Shown: positions 16,621 to 36,237 of the stretch, piece after piece
Position numbering within the stretch: position 1 is the stretch's first letter
Layout: each line of letters begins with the position of its first letter
Assembly: GCA_020364185.1 (NCBI GenBank)
Contig: GCA_020364185.1_4846.1
Reading direction: 5' to 3' (one strand)
Length of the DNA: 47,086 nt
From: a phage
The notes under the pieces: generated by a model
Databases searched by the model: none
What the model was told of the DNA's origin: nothing
What the model saw: only the letters and a program-made list of their open reading frames with translations
Made by a program: the position numbers and the translations under genes

Positions 16621-16697
16621 GGACGCGTAGCTTAATTGGTTAAAGCAACCGACTCATAATCGGCTGATTGAAGGTTCAAATCCGTCCGTGTCCACCA
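16621..16697 (+). tRNA. tRNA-Met (anticodon CAU; could be initiator/elongator Met or lysidine-modified Ile2)
   Basis: manual fold: 7-bp acceptor stem (one G-U), U8, D-arm GCTT/AAGC with GG in loop, anticodon loop CUCAUAA, T-loop TTCAAAT, discriminator A and encoded CCA; two stem mismatches. Confidence 0.6.
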
Positions 16698-17272: not shown

Positions 17273-17764
17273 ATGATTTCAGAGCGTGATTACATAGCAA
17301 TCGCGTCAAGAGTTAAATACGACCCGATTACCGGATTGTTCACCTGGGCTGTAAGTTGCGGGAAAATATCAAAAGGTGATATTGCAAACTATCACAACGA
17401 CGCAGGATACATAACCCTTGGGAAGAAAAGATTAAGGGCGCACCGAGTGGCTTGGTTTATCCATTATGGATATGTCCCTGAGCATGAAATTGATCACATA
17501 AACAATATTCGTGATGACAATAGAATTTCAAATCTGAGGGAGGCCAGTGACTGCGAGAACGCAAGGAACACAAAGATATCTAAATCAAACACGTCTGGAT
17601 ATAAAGGAGTTCATTTTTGCAAGTGCACTGGGAAATGGAGAGCCACGGTAAAGATGCATGGGAAAACCTATCATCTTGGTAGGTTTTCAGACAAAGAAGC
17701 AGCCCATAAAGCCTATTGCAAAAAAGTAGATGAACTGTTTTTGGAGTTCGCAAACCACGGCTAA
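17273..17764 (+). CDS. HNH homing endonuclease with AP2-like DNA-binding domain
   Basis: GGAGG RBS then ATG 17273; motifs RLRAHRVAWFIHYGYVPEHEIDHINNIRDDNRISNLREAS (HNH) and SGYKGVHFCKCTGKWRATVKMHGKTYHLGRFSDKEAAHKAY (AP2-like); opposite strand to surrounding structural genes. Confidence 0.75.
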   Translation: MISERDYIAIASRVKYDPITGLFTWAVSCGKISKGDIANYHNDAGYITLGKKRLRAHRVAWFIHYGYVPEHEIDHINNIRDDNRISNLREASDCENARNTKISKSNTSGYKGVHFCKCTGKWRATVKMHGKTYHLGRFSDKEAAHKAYCKKVDELFLEFANHG

Positions 17765-18159
17765 ATCTTCATTTCTTTTTTTACCACTGAATCAACGAGG
17801 CTGCGAGTTTTATCGGCAGCCTTTGTTAAGAATCTAGGTTCAGCATTCGGCGACCAGTACGTGCTATTGCCATTGCTGCGCGGTTTACCTGCAAGTTTTC
17901 CGCTGGCGTTATGGACGTACAGTGCATATTTCGCAGAATAACCAACTTTGCCGGTGATTCGCGTCCCGTTAACTTCCACGGTATCAAACTGACTGTTAAT
18001 CAGCGTTGAAGTATCAATTGGCGTTAACGTGGCTGATTCGGTGCGGATGATGTGTGTCGCTGACTTCAGGGCGCGCACAGCTTTTGTGGCGATTATCTCA
18101 TCCACAATTTGCGAAGTTCTCTCTACGGCCTGCCTGACACCTCTTAATTTCGCTGGCAT
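17761..18159 (-). CDS. HK97 gp10-family tail component
   Basis: 132 aa; motif GKVGYSAKYALYVHNASGKLAGKP...YWSPNAEPRFLTKA matches the conserved core recalled for HK97 gp10-family proteins. Confidence 0.5.
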   Translation of the reverse strand: MPAKLRGVRQAVERTSQIVDEIIATKAVRALKSATHIIRTESATLTPIDTSTLINSQFDTVEVNGTRITGKVGYSAKYALYVHNASGKLAGKPRSNGNSTYWSPNAEPRFLTKAADKTRSLVDSVVKKEMKI

Positions 18160-24372: not shown

Positions 24373-26126
<1,754 letters not shown>

Positions 26127-26462
26127 CGCGTAGCTCCACGGTTAGTTTGTGGTCGAATTATAACACAGGGAGATATAGCACCATGAGGCGGTAGCCAGTG
26201 CAAATAATGGCGAATCAGTGAGCGCGTATAGCGTGAGAAAGTAAGTGATAGGGATTATGTTCATGGGCCACCTCCTGCTTAAATGATAGCAGCCCATGAT
26301 GAACAAAAGATATACAGTGTTAGTCTGAAATCACATCATCCATGAATGCGAGTGCGGCACCTGAAAGACAAAACAGAGCGCCATAGCAAATCATCTGGTA
26401 CAGAGTATCAGCCTCAAATACCCTCGCGAATGCGTAGGCTGATAATATCCACAGCAATGGAA

Positions 26463-26651
26463 TCATGGTCTACCCCTGTTTTCTTTGTAGAGTGCATCGC
26501 AGATTTTTTGATACTCCCTCTGAAACCAGTCTATGTTCCTGTTGTAATCACTGCCTATTGCCTCAATCTTCTTTGTCGCCATTGCACTTGCTGCATTAAT
26601 CAATGCAACCTGAACCTCAACAGGAAGCTCTGGAAATTTTGGGGTGTTCAT
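26463..26651 (-). CDS. hypothetical protein
   Basis: 62-aa ORF in minus-strand small-gene block, overlapping stop/start with neighbour. Confidence 0.3.
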   Translation of the reverse strand: MNTPKFPELPVEVQVALINAASAMATKKIEAIGSDYNRNIDWFQREYQKICDALYKENRGRP

Positions 26652-26974
26652 AACCCAGCCTCCTGTTTTGCGCGATGCACGTATGACATAAACTTGCCAA
26701 TAGGCATTTCCTTGCGTATTTGCGCCAGAATCGCCCCGTGAAGCACCCTTTCCTCACCAAAATACAGCTTATCGAGTCGCGTTTTGATGAGTGCTCGCGT
26801 GCGCTTCATGTGGTCGCGTGCTTTAAGTGCTTTCTCATGCCAGACGCGATCATTCTTCTTATCCGCATATTGCAGTTGGCGCTCAACGGTTTCGATTTCA
26901 AACGCCAGTTGCATGTCATAATCTTCAAGCTGAATGATGTCCGCTTTCATAATGTCGTTTAACTGGATAATCAT
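26648..26974 (-). CDS. hypothetical protein
   Basis: 108-aa ORF, ATGA overlap with neighbours. Confidence 0.4.
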   Translation of the reverse strand: MIIQLNDIMKADIIQLEDYDMQLAFEIETVERQLQYADKKNDRVWHEKALKARDHMKRTRALIKTRLDKLYFGEERVLHGAILAQIRKEMPIGKFMSYVHRAKQEAGL

Positions 26975-27222
26975 TTTTTCACCTTTAAGTTGTGTTTTGT
27001 TAATTCATCAATGACATCATTTTGATCGCACAGCAGCAAATGCATATTGCTTAGGTCAACCTCAATTGCTGCACGGGATGCCTGCCACGCCATCCATGCG
27101 AGATTTGTTTGATGGCATTTGTACTGCTGGTCATCCCATTCAGTCATTGGATATTCCGTGCGCCATAAATCAAATCCTGTTTCTTCCTTAATCCACTTTT
27201 CAAACTGCTCTCTACTCGTCAT
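26971..27222 (-). CDS. hypothetical protein
   Basis: 83-aa ORF, overlapping stop/start coupling. Confidence 0.4.
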   Translation of the reverse strand: MTSREQFEKWIKEETGFDLWRTEYPMTEWDDQQYKCHQTNLAWMAWQASRAAIEVDLSNMHLLLCDQNDVIDELTKHNLKVKK

Positions 27223-27445
27223 CTTCTAAATCCTCATCATCTCCTTCTAAATTTACAGTCCATCCATACTCGTCACACCACATGCAAGTATAATGAATGT
27301 AAGGCCATCCTCCGCTGCTAACCCACTCGTGGTCACACTCAACTTCCTCCACTATCCAGCCCATCTTTCTACGGTTATTGGCAATAAACTCATCCGATGT
27401 TTCAAACAGAGTTCTGCCGGATTTGTGCTTAATAGCCCATCTCAT
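27212..27445 (-). CDS. hypothetical protein with acidic C-terminus
   Basis: 77-aa ORF ending ...EGDDEDLEDDE. Confidence 0.4.
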   Translation of the reverse strand: MRWAIKHKSGRTLFETSDEFIANNRRKMGWIVEEVECDHEWVSSGGWPYIHYTCMWCDEYGWTVNLEGDDEDLEDDE

Positions 27446-27570
27446 TTAGTACGTCCTCAGCAAGTTTGCGGAACATAATTTGCACTCTTGCCACCTTTCG
27501 CCACTCCGCCTCGGTGAGAATCACATCCTCCCGTTGCGGCATTCCTGACATTTCGCATGGTGGTAGCGGT

Positions 27571-28059
27571 TCATACTCTTGCTTCTTGCGTTTGGCTTTT
27601 CCCATGCTGACCTCTTGCGCTGCGAAGGAGTGAATTAAACAGTTTGCTCACGTTTACTTCCTGCTCCTGCCATGAGTAACGCCATAGCTTCTTGTGGTGG
27701 TCATAGCTTCGCGTCGCATCGCCGTTATGAAACATGATGCGGATGCGGCTTTTCACGATGCGGTAATCCAATCCAGTGGCTGCGCTAATTTCTTTCACCT
27801 CTGCGCCAGCGTTATCAATCAGGTGACACTTGATTGCATCATCAATTCCTGCAGAATCATCGGAGATGAAATACTTGTACTGCCACTTGCCGCCGCGAAT
27901 CACCGACTTCTCTCGGCGAATGAAGCCAAGAGCAAGCATCTCATGCAAACGATGCGTTGTGGTGCTTGAATGCTTACCGCCGCAATGCTTTTCAATATAT
28001 GCACGCGTTGCTCCGGGATGGTTGAGAATCACGCGCATGATTTGCGATTTATAGTCCAT
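27571..28059 (-). CDS. putative DNA-binding protein; start uncertain
   Basis: ORF downstream of HNH gene; basic helical N-terminal region; start at ATG 28059 chosen to avoid long overlap with HNH gene. Confidence 0.35.
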   Translation of the reverse strand: MDYKSQIMRVILNHPGATRAYIEKHCGGKHSSTTTHRLHEMLALGFIRREKSVIRGGKWQYKYFISDDSAGIDDAIKCHLIDNAGAEVKEISAATGLDYRIVKSRIRIMFHNGDATRSYDHHKKLWRYSWQEQEVNVSKLFNSLLRSARGQHGKSQTQEARV

Positions 28060-28570
28060 AATCGCGCTCCGCTGCTGCCTGATTGAAGTCGTCGGCGGTG
28101 TAGAGGTGTCCGTGATTCTGAAATTCACCTTGTATTTTGTTTCTGTATTCTATCAATGCATTAATTGCTTGTTCTTTTGTTTTAAAGTAACCAAGCGTCT
28201 TTCTCATACAGTCTGCACGCCATTTCATTCGCTTTTGTACAAACCTTACTCCTTTTGCTCCTGATTTATTTGAGGATGGCTGTGGCTTATTCCATTCATT
28301 TTGACTTCTTGTTGCCTTTCTCAGATTGCAAATTCTGTTGTCATCCTTTACACCGTTAATGTGATCTATTTCATGTTCAGGCCATTCACCGTAAACATAA
28401 AACCATGCCAATCTATGAGCCAATCTCTTTTTTCCTAGCAGCCTTATGTGTATATATCCACTGGATGTTTTTGTTCCGCATGCATTACCGTTCTTTCTCC
28501 TAAACTCACCTGTGTCCGTATTATAGTGAATTAACTGTAATACAGTATCGTGATTAAGATCGCATTTCAT
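28049..28570 (-). CDS. HNH homing endonuclease with AP2-like DNA-binding domain (paralogue of 17273-17764)
   Basis: KKRLAHRLAWFYVYGEWPEHEIDHINGVKDDNRICNLRKATRSQNEWN (HNH) and SGAKGVRFVQKRMKWRADCMRKTLGYFKTKEQA (AP2-like). Confidence 0.75.
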   Translation of the reverse strand: MKCDLNHDTVLQLIHYNTDTGEFRRKNGNACGTKTSSGYIHIRLLGKKRLAHRLAWFYVYGEWPEHEIDHINGVKDDNRICNLRKATRSQNEWNKPQPSSNKSGAKGVRFVQKRMKWRADCMRKTLGYFKTKEQAINALIEYRNKIQGEFQNHGHLYTADDFNQAAAERDYGL

Positions 28571-28806
28571 TAGTATTCACCCTCAAAATCACTATCTTTA
28601 TAAGTAAACCCCCCTCTTGTATTCCATGACTTCACCGCCGAATCTGCGTGAAGCCACTCATCAGTACCGCACCCGCACTGCGAACAAGCAACGTAATAGC
28701 CATGAATATTTTTGTCATTGTAAGCATCGTTGCAGCCACAGAATGGGCACTCCAGCAATCCTTCATCATTCATCATCGGCATATGTGGCGCTGTCATTTT
28801 AACCAT
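28570..28806 (-). CDS. Lar-family restriction alleviation-like protein
   Basis: 78 aa; LECPFCGC...HGYYVACSQCGCGTDEW...AVKSWNTRGG resembles the Zn-ribbon pattern recalled for Lar-type restriction alleviation proteins. Confidence 0.55.
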   Translation of the reverse strand: MVKMTAPHMPMMNDEGLLECPFCGCNDAYNDKNIHGYYVACSQCGCGTDEWLHADSAVKSWNTRGGFTYKDSDFEGEY

Positions 28807-29012
28807 TCTCCTAGGTTGTTAAATTTAGGCGTATCGCCAGACCAGTCGATAACATCCTTCTGCTGACTGCGCTTGCATTGCAGGCGGTTGCGCACCTCGC
28901 GAAGTTCGCACTCCAGCCATTCGCGTGTGCGCTCAACTTCATTCAGTCGCTGAATTAACGATTTTTCGTACAGTTCATCAGTTGTCATTGTGTGCTCCTC
29001 AAAATTTACCAA
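28794..29012 (-). CDS. hypothetical protein
   Basis: 72-aa ORF in minus-strand block. Confidence 0.35.
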   Translation of the reverse strand: MVNFEEHTMTTDELYEKSLIQRLNEVERTREWLECELREVRNRLQCKRSQQKDVIDWSGDTPKFNNLGEWLK

Positions 29013-29232
29013 CCGTTGCCATTCTCAGCAGTTCAGGAAGCACCCCGGTCGAGTAATCTACCCGCCCCTGATGATACCCTTCAAGGACCGCGTTTGTGAG
29101 ATGCGTAAGACACAGGTCAATGTCTTCAGCGCTTAATCCGCGAGCTTCAAGCATGGAGCGTAAATACTCACATCTTTCTGCTATTACTTTTTCTGCACTC
29201 ATTTCCACATCACCTTTTTCGTTGTGGTACAA
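28999..29232 (-). CDS. hypothetical protein
   Basis: 77-aa ORF, first gene downstream of divergent promoter region. Confidence 0.35.
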   Translation of the reverse strand: MYHNEKGDVEMSAEKVIAERCEYLRSMLEARGLSAEDIDLCLTHLTNAVLEGYHQGRVDYSTGVLPELLRMATVGKF

Positions 29233-29270
29233 TCTACGTCAATAAGTATTGACTAAATGATGTAGATTGG
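29229..29270. promoter_or_regulatory. divergent promoter/operator region carrying TTGACGTAGATT (minus) and TGATGTAGATT (plus)
   Basis: AATCTACGTCAA at 29231-29242 and TGATGTAGATTGGTCAA at 29258-29274 between divergently oriented ORFs. Confidence 0.45.
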
Positions 29271-29302
29271 TCAACAATAATTTTCGAGAAGGAGTAGTAA
29301 AT

Positions 29303-29512
29303 ATGCCAAGACCACGACGCGAGCCGATGGACATTATCACCAGCATTGTGGAGAAGCGGCAGCCGCTGACACTCCGTGATGTTCGCTACTTTGCCCGTTG
29401 CTATGTGGCGCTGGCTGATATGCCTAAAGATGAGATGTATGATTTGATTCGTGAGAATTTTAATGTTGATGAGTATAACCGCGTCACAATGCCGCGACGC
29501 GAAAATGATTAA
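29303..29512 (+). CDS. hypothetical protein
   Basis: 69 aa from ATG 29303 with AAGGAG RBS. Confidence 0.4.
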   Translation: MPRPRREPMDIITSIVEKRQPLTLRDVRYFARCYVALADMPKDEMYDLIRENFNVDEYNRVTMPRREND

Positions 29513-29524
29513 GTGGAGAAAGTG

Positions 29525-30016
29525 ATGAGTAATTGGGAATATCTGAAGGGTTGCGAGAAGGATTTTGATGGTCATAAAACGGCTTCCGTCGTAGTTAAGT
29601 CAGGACTCACAGGTATAATTTACTACCTGAGTCACTATTACGTAGGGAAAGTCAGCACCATCGAAGGTGCAGGAGATATCGTAATTGCTATTCGCATACC
29701 GGTGAGTGACGAACAAGACCTCAACGATTGCATTGGCGCGCCGGAAGCTGATGCAACAGAGCAACTCATCACCGAACGCGGCAACCGTTACGGCAAATTC
29801 AAAGACGGCGCCGCAATCATGCAGGAACTGAAATTTGTCATGCGCGAAGTTGACGGCTGGCACAACCTGACGCCAAGTCAGCGGGAAGCGCTCGACATGA
29901 TTCAGCACAAGATTGGTCGCATCCTGAATGGCGACCCGGCTTATGATGATAGCTGGAAGGATATTGCTGGCTATGCGACGTTAATTGTTAATGAACTGAA
30001 TGGAGAGATTAAATAA
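29525..30016 (+). CDS. hypothetical protein
   Basis: 163 aa from ATG 29525 (GGAG RBS). Confidence 0.45.
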   Translation: MSNWEYLKGCEKDFDGHKTASVVVKSGLTGIIYYLSHYYVGKVSTIEGAGDIVIAIRIPVSDEQDLNDCIGAPEADATEQLITERGNRYGKFKDGAAIMQELKFVMREVDGWHNLTPSQREALDMIQHKIGRILNGDPAYDDSWKDIAGYATLIVNELNGEIK

Positions 30017-30324
30017 TGGCATTCTGCGACATCACAATCGCGCAACGAAACGCGAACTATACCAACATTGCTGACACATCAGCGCAACTGGTATCACTGA
30101 ACAGCGACGGTAGCGCAGTGCTGAAAATTGGCACCGAAACAGCACAGTTCATCGTGCAGAATCTGTCGCAGGCGAACGCGAAACAGGTGCTGATTAGCAC
30201 GGGCAGCGTTCTGTTTCTGGCTGGTAATTACAATGCGCCGAACCTTGAGTGTTCACTGGTGCGCATCGTTGAAACTGCGGTCGAGGAATCTGTTGATGAG
30301 TCAGCGACCTTGCCAGCAGAGTGA
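30016..30324 (+). CDS. hypothetical protein
   Basis: 102-aa ORF whose start codon overlaps the upstream stop (TAATG). Confidence 0.4.
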   Translation: MAFCDITIAQRNANYTNIADTSAQLVSLNSDGSAVLKIGTETAQFIVQNLSQANAKQVLISTGSVLFLAGNYNAPNLECSLVRIVETAVEESVDESATLPAE

Positions 30325-30451
30325 GCCACCAAAACCATCGGCATGGTGTGAGCAAATGGAGCGCAATGCGAAAGATGGTGATGAGGCGTATACTTATTTT
30401 CAGCTGAAACAGATGTGGAAGCAGAGAGAAAACTCAGAGCAAGCCAATTAA
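30296..30451 (+). CDS. hypothetical protein (51 aa)
   Basis: ATG 30296 preceded by GAGGA; overlaps upstream ORF end; followed by terminator. Confidence 0.3.
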   Translation: MSQRPCQQSEPPKPSAWCEQMERNAKDGDEAYTYFQLKQMWKQRENSEQAN

Positions 30452-30454
30452 AAA

Positions 30455-30482
30455 CAAGCCCCATTACGGGGCTTTTTTATTG
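30455..30482. terminator. bidirectional intrinsic terminator
   Basis: AAGCCCC-attac-GGGGCTT followed by TTTTTAT. Confidence 0.65.
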
Positions 30483-30955
30483 CGTAATGAGTTGTACTGC
30501 GCCTCACACATCAATCCCGCCTCCCTTGCCCTGTCAGCGTAATCTGCCAGCTGTCGATTTCTTTCGACAGATTTGCTGAGCACGTCTCCAAGCAAAACCC
30601 CGGTTTCTGCGGCTGGATTGCCAATGGACTCAGCGGCGGAATATCCGACGAGCTGCTTGCGGATGTTTGCGAGTTGTTGCTGCAACCTGCCAGACTTAGC
30701 AGCAGCGTTAACAGCATCATTACGCGCAGCATCAACCCTTTGCTGGGCGTCGGCCTGAATCTTCTGTAGTTCCGCATTGCGTCGTTGCTCCTCTTTCTCG
30801 TTGGCAGCCTTTTGTTCGGCTACAGCCGTTGCGTACCCGTCGTTATATCTCCGCTCGCCATAGCTGGATACCTTGTTGACAACCCACAACGCGCAGATAG
30901 CGACAATTATAATAATTGCCAGCGGTCGCCAGTATTTAATGAGAGTTGCCATCAT
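30464..30955 (-). CDS. i-spanin (Rz-like)
   Basis: 163 aa; N-terminal TM helix (WRPLAIIIIVAICALWVV) then charged coiled-coil periplasmic domain; contains embedded Rz1-like ORF. Confidence 0.6.
   Translation of the reverse strand: MMATLIKYWRPLAIIIIVAICALWVVNKVSSYGERRYNDGYATAVAEQKAANEKEEQRRNAELQKIQADAQQRVDAARNDAVNAAAKSGRLQQQLANIRKQLVGYSAAESIGNPAAETGVLLGDVLSKSVERNRQLADYADRAREAGLMCEAQYNSLRNKKAP
30511..30732 (-). CDS. o-spanin (Rz1-like lipoprotein) embedded in alternate frame of Rz-like gene
   Basis: signal MLRVMMLLTLLLSLAGC with lipobox L-A-G-C, Pro-rich mature part; entirely within 30464-30955 in another frame. Confidence 0.5.
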   Translation of the reverse strand: MLRVMMLLTLLLSLAGCSNNSQTSASSSSDIPPLSPLAIQPQKPGFCLETCSANLSKEIDSWQITLTGQGRRD

Positions 30956-36070: not shown

Positions 36071-36237
36071 TGCTCAATCTCCTCGCCATCAACCCAGCGT
36101 TGCAGAACTTCGATTAGTTGCGTGGCTTGGTGTTTGTCGATAACTACAATGTGCGTATCTTGGCAAATCATGCCGCCATCAGTAACACCGCCGCACATAA
36201 CATCAATATCAGGATACTCTTCGCTTTCAATAATCAT
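36067..36237 (-). CDS. hypothetical protein (56 aa)
   Basis: hand-translated MIIESEEYPDIDVMCGGVTDGGMICQDTHIVVIDKHQATQLIEVLQRWVDGEEIEQ. Confidence 0.3.
   Translation of the reverse strand: MIIESEEYPDIDVMCGGVTDGGMICQDTHIVVIDKHQATQLIEVLQRWVDGEEIEQ

Follow-up and report, generated by a model that had tools for sequence, protein, structure and literature searches.

The window, by which we mean the whole 47,086-nucleotide stretch of DNA analysed, comes from a virulent siphophage of the Skatevirus-like kind. Over its first 25 kb, the structural half, its identity to Shigella phage Sf11 and E. coli phage Sa179lw is about 91%; around the gene described here, identity to the Salmonella phages Skate, Seszw and gmqsjt-1 is 87–89%. 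This gene encodes a small Lar-like zinc-ribbon protein. Small overlapping ORFs, in the same order as in Skate, form a block that runs leftward from a divergent intergenic region near 29233–29266, and the gene is the third of them. It is interrupted at its 3′ end by an HNH gene, and a MarR-like gene follows (Table 1).

Table 1. Features of the Lar-like locus, in window coordinates; residue numbers are those of the 75-aa protein.
Feature	Position	Strand	Evidence or remark
Upstream small ORF	28794..29012	-	PHROG 15697; translationally coupled to the Lar-like gene
Shine-Dalgarno sequence AGGAGA, 9 nt before M4	28807..28812	-	Read from the sequence
ORF of 78 aa, including three extra N-terminal codons	28570..28806	-	MVKMTAPHMPMMNDEGLLECPFCGCNDAYNDKNIHGYYVACSQCGCGTDEWLHADSAVKSWNTRGGFTYKDSDFEGEY
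Lar-family zinc-ribbon CDS (most likely extent), 75 aa plus stop	28570..28797	-	ORF, PF14354, TIGR03655, PHROG 599, identical NCBI protein
Zinc knuckle 1 (predicted), C17-P-F-C20	28738..28749	-	Invariant Cys columns
Zinc knuckle 2 (predicted), C38-S-Q-C41	28675..28686	-	Invariant Cys columns
W58-N-T-R61 motif, end of helix	28615..28626	-	W, N and R invariant
Surrogate C-terminal tail of the Lar-like protein, GGFTYKDSDFEGEY then stop	28570..28614	-	From the HNH cassette
Inserted cassette (surrogate tail plus HNH), 506 bp	about 28109..28614	-	Insertion relative to Skate
HNH (HNH_3) homing-type endonuclease CDS, 173 aa	28049..28570	-	Pfam, PHROG
Ancestral Lar-like tail remnant, HLYTADDFNQAAAERDYGL then stop, now the HNH C-terminus in frame	28049..28108	-	Matches HNH-less alleles
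MarR-like winged-helix gene, downstream	27571..28059	-	PHROG 1687

A sequence-only reading of this DNA had described a 78-aa product with the motifs CPFCG, YYVxCxxCG and SWNTR. All three are found in the minus-strand ORF 28570..28806, the second as YYVACSQCG, and an ORF of 78 codons does exist there, but translation most likely begins at M4 (28797), giving 75 aa. The first ATG of the ORF (28806) abuts the Shine-Dalgarno sequence AGGAGA with no spacer, while M4, the second in-frame ATG, lies 9 nt downstream of it. The ATG of M4 also shares bases with the TGA that ends the upstream ORF (ATGA at 28794–28797), and the Shine-Dalgarno and ATGA arrangement is the same in phage Skate. The N-terminus is MTAP or MSAP in all homologues, and NCBI holds a 75-aa protein (P0001) that is identical to the window protein and named "Lar family restriction alleviation protein". 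Because of this spacing, this overlap, the homologue starts and the 75-aa NCBI twin, we place the CDS most likely at 28570..28797.

The gene is real, is under purifying selection and is a bona fide member of its family. We found 181 close homologues of the protein in phage contigs of about 45–48 kb, and a single-sequence phmmer search of a library of 1.84 billion representatives gave 360 relatives at E <= 1e-3, many of them with two matched stretches. By tblastn the gene is present in 202 phage records, many of which carry the annotation 'Lar-like restriction alleviation protein'. Codon analysis gave a dN/dS of about 0.14 inside core types (groups of similar zinc-ribbon cores, described below), indicating purifying selection, and for the leader codons a pS of 0.41 against a pN of 0.075.

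Lar-family identity, which had been proposed from the motifs, was borne out by profile matches in three independent libraries, by motifs shared with Lar/RalR of the Rac prophage and by public annotation. The profile search against Lar models, named in advance as the check, was positive throughout: Pfam PF14354 (Lar_restr_allev) scored 45.9 bits against a cut-off of 28.6 (E = 6.8e-12), NCBIfam TIGR03655 (anti_R_Lar) passed marginally at 39.9 bits, 0.3 bits above its cut-off of 39.6, and PHROG 599, 'Lar-like restriction alleviation protein', matched at E = 1.2e-13. The assignment itself is already known and of low novelty, since the identical protein and its orthologues are so labelled in public databases.

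We aligned 34 sequences, 33 homologues plus RalR. The four cysteines C17, C20, C38 and C41 are invariant in all of them, RalR included, as are W58, N59 and R61, which align with W50-N51-K52-R53 (WNKR) of RalR. An AF2 model (pLDDT 83.7, pTM 0.70) has a beta-hairpin at residues 25–38 between the knuckles, a helix at 51–58 leading into WNTR, and a short tail helix. The model is confident, and the predicted fold is thus a zinc-ribbon hairpin plus helix, with zinc binding likewise predicted. A sequence search of the PDB returned chance matches alone (cytochrome c3 and the TFIIIB ribbon; E >= 0.009), and the Elf1-type zinc ribbon is a structural neighbor only. To our knowledge the Lar family has no known structure or mechanism.

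Rac Lar/RalR of E. coli K-12 (b1348, 64 aa) is the founder of PF14354 and TIGR03655. The window protein is 37% identical to it over 54 aa (BLASTP, with RalR translated from NC_000913), and both are small single domains with the pattern C-x2-C ... C-x2-C ... W-N-x-R encoded in a phage accessory-gene context. They differ in that RalR lacks both the conserved N-terminal leader of 16 aa and the C-terminal tail of the window protein, and in their carriers, a virulent siphophage for the window gene and a lambdoid prophage for RalR. Against the RalR equivalog model NF007260 the window protein scores 24 bits and fails the cut-off of 113; judged by this model, it is not a RalR orthologue. The RalA antitoxin sRNA (Rfam RF02694) had no match in the whole window at the gathering threshold, nor at 27500–29600 even at E <= 1, while the positive control in Rac scored 225 bits; the Rfam scan found nothing near the Lar-like gene. 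Six RalR positions have been linked to toxicity, C14, T37, Y39, R49, N51 and K52, and the K52Q mutant lost its DNase activity (Guo et al., 2014; PMC4041452). Three of the six are kept, C14, T37 and N51 corresponding to C22, T45 and N59 of the window protein, and three are changed (Y39 to E, R49 to S, K52 to T); the threonine in place of K52 sits in the near-invariant WNTR of the phage subfamily.

Ral of lambda and P22, likewise a small phage protein and an early one, is a functional analogue only, with no sequence relationship: no Ral family was among the Pfam matches of the Lar-like protein at E <= 1, and Ral and RalR are unrelated according to Guo et al. (PMC4041452). Ral enhances de novo methylation by type IA systems, and its protection is only partial (PMC12707154).

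The HNH gene next to the Lar-like gene had been taken as supporting context. It turned out to be a mobile element inserted in the 3′ end of the Lar-like gene, and no functional partner. Its product matches PF13392 HNH_3 at 60.5 bits (cut-off 24.8) and PHROG 99 at E = 3.9e-59; an AP2-like C-terminal region is weak and, at 17.4 bits, falls below its cut-off. The HNH start overlaps the Lar stop (TAATG). Skate gp29 offers the intact form: it is HNH-less, has 82 aa with the end WNTRNGHLYTAEDFSQAAEERDYVL and shares 11 nt with the MarR-like gene. The Lar-like ORF of the window has the end WNTRGGFTYKDSDFEGEY, and its HNH ORF has NHGHLYTADDFNQAAAERDYGL. The end of the HNH ORF, HLYTADDFNQAAAERDYGL, matches the tails of HNH-less alleles, namely Skate gp29 (ending NGHLYTAEDFSQAAEERDYVL) and P0002/P0005, and keeps the 11-nt overlap with the MarR-like start (28059) that is seen in Skate. 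In the surrogate tail now ending the Lar-like protein, the ancestral motif G-[FH]-x-Y-[TSK]-x-x-D-[FY] is retained. The insertion has given the Lar-like gene a look-alike tail and joined the old one to the C-terminus of the HNH protein, and by that fusion translational coupling to the next gene is preserved.

Besides the window, seven other loci have the HNH gene at this site, following WNTR(G)G (L003–L007, L020 and L025); they comprise metagenomic contig L003, phages 64795_sal3, KpnS_VR6602, Bas78 and MK54, and IMG/VR contigs L020 and L025. The surrogate tail in those carriers reads GGF(V/T)Y(S/K)xxD(Y/F)E..., likewise with the ancestral motif, and that of the window recurs beside the same HNH in L003. 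The HNH gene is absent in Skate and about 40 other loci, and alleles L037–L039 have the same core without it. The cassette is 91–94% identical where its flanks are 59–71% identical (L004 compared with L005/L006). HNH-linked tails occur in three of 30 core clusters and in 12 of 118 representatives (about 10%). From these comparisons the HNH gene is a selfish mobile cassette of homing type, inserted in an ancestral Lar-like gene after WNTR; cleavage and homing by its product are putative. A functional Lar-HNH partnership was considered and rejected, with only 12 of 118 alleles having an HNH-linked tail and the cassette moving independently of its flanks.

Like free-standing phage HNH homing endonucleases such as T4 MobE, the element has an HNH domain and is polymorphic for presence or absence at one site, and like those found at recombination boundaries it is more conserved than its flanks and sits at the border of a variable and a conserved segment. 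Unlike them, it interrupts a coding gene within its 3′ end, brings a substitute tail and captures the old tail in frame. Two reports describe homing endonuclease genes at exchange boundaries in ICP1 (PMC10448857) and an HNH element inserted in frame into a phage methylase (PMC11855218). The window insertion is a tidy case of a selfish element that spares the gene it entered as well as translational coupling downstream.

The Lar-like gene is unannotated in 64795_sal3 (L004, NC_031918.1 9473..10192) and MK54 (L007, NC_071146.1 2751..3674), where a CDS called 'HNH endonuclease' runs upstream across it in another frame. We rejected the possibility that these CDSs, 64795_sal3 ORF21 (239 aa) and MK54 gp10 (203 aa), are Lar-HNH fusions: the Lar-like ORF is intact in a different frame, and both are the HNH frame extended upstream. 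The window also has a second HNH paralogue at 17312..17776 on the plus strand, 42% identical to the product of 28049..28570 (tblastn E = 4e-29). It sits about 600 bp downstream of a tRNA-Met gene (anticodon CAT; 16621..16697, plus strand) that scores 63.4 bits with Rfam and on which ARAGORN agrees.

Among Skatevirus-like relatives (Skate gp29 YP_010053312, IME207, the VLCpiS13 series and Bas78_0029), orthologues share the position, the leader, the zinc knuckles and WNTR, with identities of 45–87%. Most have the ancestral 82-aa form, HNH-less and with the tail GHLYTA(E/D)DF...DYGL, whereas the window has the HNH-interrupted form with its short surrogate tail, found elsewhere only in metagenomic P0013/L003. 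A hypervariable core, from the first Cys to WNTR (28615..28749, minus strand), was seen in the window and in homologues P0001–P0122 and L008–L070. Mean identity among 118 representatives is 79% in the 16-aa leader, 40% in the zinc-ribbon core and 61% in the ancestral tail. It is the protein sequence of the leader, MTAPHMPMMNDEGLLE, that is conserved. At a distance cut-off of 0.45 the cores of the 118 representatives form 30 clusters, and comparisons between core types show saturation at synonymous sites (pS about 0.76). We considered whether the core is under pervasive positive selection and, inside core types, found no support for it (dN/dS 0.14).

One way to read this diversity is that the locus is a hypervariable specificity cassette whose alleles act against different defences and are exchanged by co-conversion associated with HNH homing. 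It would then comprise at least 30 core types set between the 16-aa leader and the G-[FH]-x-Y-x3-D-[FY] tail, and the HNH gene at the core/tail boundary would spread alleles among Salmonella, Escherichia and Klebsiella phages. Taken jointly, we regard these propositions as rather improbable. Beside the family assignment, the HNH gene within a gene and the hypervariable core are of modest interest.

Position was also part of the original argument for an anti-restriction function. A leftward block of small genes is indeed present; the label 'early', however, comes from gene order, and the argument is weak because promoter matches are no better than chance (a promoter and terminator scan of 25500–30500 gave 9 vs 7.4 and 4 vs 4.2). 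From gene order only, we infer an early role. In the same block, the upstream small ORF probably starts at the ATG at 28988, since its PHROG 15697 match begins at residue 9. Its homologue MK54 gp09 carries the name 'tumor suppressor protein', which apparently goes back to a weak APC coiled-coil match (E = 0.0076 for the window ORF). A 77-aa ORF further along the block (27212..27445, minus strand) has a Cys/His-rich stretch, CDHEW...YTCMWCDEYGW, and no Pfam match; from this composition it might be a small metal-binding protein.

By analogy, the Lar-like protein may perform a partial, modification-enhancing restriction alleviation of the Lar/Ral kind, to which we assign a probability of about one half. 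This role is our best guess because the protein is homologous to Rac Lar, the only member tested for such activity. The family's anti-restriction evidence reportedly comes from Rac Lar alone, against EcoKI. For timing, target and mechanism we infer the following course. Expressed from the leftward block of small accessory genes of this virulent Skatevirus-like siphophage, the protein would bind the host type I restriction-modification complex (EcoKI-like, family IA), and the bound complex would be biased to methylate unmodified incoming DNA instead of cutting it. The outcome would be a partial, Ral-like rescue and no Ocr-like block.

Several results limit this role or count against it. We counted type I sites over the whole window (at 36142..36154 and elsewhere), and found one EcoKI site where 7.3 ± 2.3 were expected, no EcoAI site where 4.5 were expected, and five EcoR124I sites where 12.7 were expected. 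EcoBI sites (13 observed, 10.5 expected) and StySB-type sites (five observed, 3.7 expected) were not depleted. The depletion of EcoKI, EcoAI and EcoR124I sites suggests that type I restriction still selects on the window phage, which we count against alleviation, as we do the 30 divergent core types, which seem to exceed the need posed by a handful of type I families. The 0.3-bit margin on TIGR03655, the failed RalR equivalog model and the chance-level promoter matches count on the same side. Bas78 (L006) has an orthologue of the Lar-like gene together with the same HNH. Its efficiency of plating (EOP) is 0.019–0.029 on EcoKI, for which it has one site, and 2–6e-4 on EcoCFT_I, for which it has three (PMC11990801, S1 Data and S2 Table), and phages of its type were termed 'markedly sensitive to RM systems' by the authors (PMC11990801). 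Because this orthologue-bearing phage is still restricted by both systems, any protection that the Lar-like gene gives against type I restriction is at most partial, and a strong block is unlikely.

The restriction of Bas78 by two type I systems also speaks for a possible, if unlikely, alternative: a Lar-fold anti-defence or host-takeover protein whose target is not type I restriction-modification, rather type IV or another variable defence, with the hypervariable zinc-ribbon core setting target specificity. A core of 40% identity in 30 clusters, flanked by a leader at 79% and a tail at 61%, fits such a protein. So does the Lar homologue of the lytic phage Bas63, which was less essential in DH10B than in three other tested strains, DH10B being without type IV restriction systems found in those three (PMC11482910). 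The PhageMaP authors suggest that this homologue may help evade type IV restriction, since two of the strains in which it matters lack an intact type I system (PMC11482910). The strain dependence of this homologue counts for the restriction alleviation role as well. Against an alternative target, EcoKI restriction alleviation is the only anti-defence activity assigned to the family biochemically or genetically, and selection inside core types is purifying, not diversifying (dN/dS 0.14).

More doubtful is a role in regulation or replication, unconnected with host defence, for a generic zinc ribbon that binds nucleic acid or protein, 'restriction alleviation' being then an over-propagated name. 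Its similarities to other ribbons are all below significance, the W-N-x-R motif and the profile scores point to Lar instead, and a phage and prophage distribution with hypervariable alleles is typical of accessory or counter-defence genes. Very improbable, despite membership in the same Pfam and TIGR family, the toxicity of excess RalR, the in vitro degradation of DNA by purified RalR (PMC4041452) and the retention of three of six toxicity-linked positions, is a RalR-like small Mg/Ca-dependent non-specific DNase that damages host DNA as described by Guo et al. (2014).

The Lar label goes back to a single genetic study, from 1995, of a protein encoded by a prophage, the same protein that was later described as a DNase toxin. 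The Skatevirus-like phages form a natural panel for studying Lar-family function, with about 30 core variants, with and without HNH, and the panel includes genetically tractable BASEL phages such as Bas78.

Elsewhere in the window we noted a GC-rich hairpin at 30456..30474 with T-runs on both sides (AAGCCCCATTACGGGGCTT), which has the look of a bidirectional intrinsic terminator. It lies between a convergent rightward block of small genes and a spanin-like ORF (30464..30955), and a terminator is annotated at the equivalent position in Skate.
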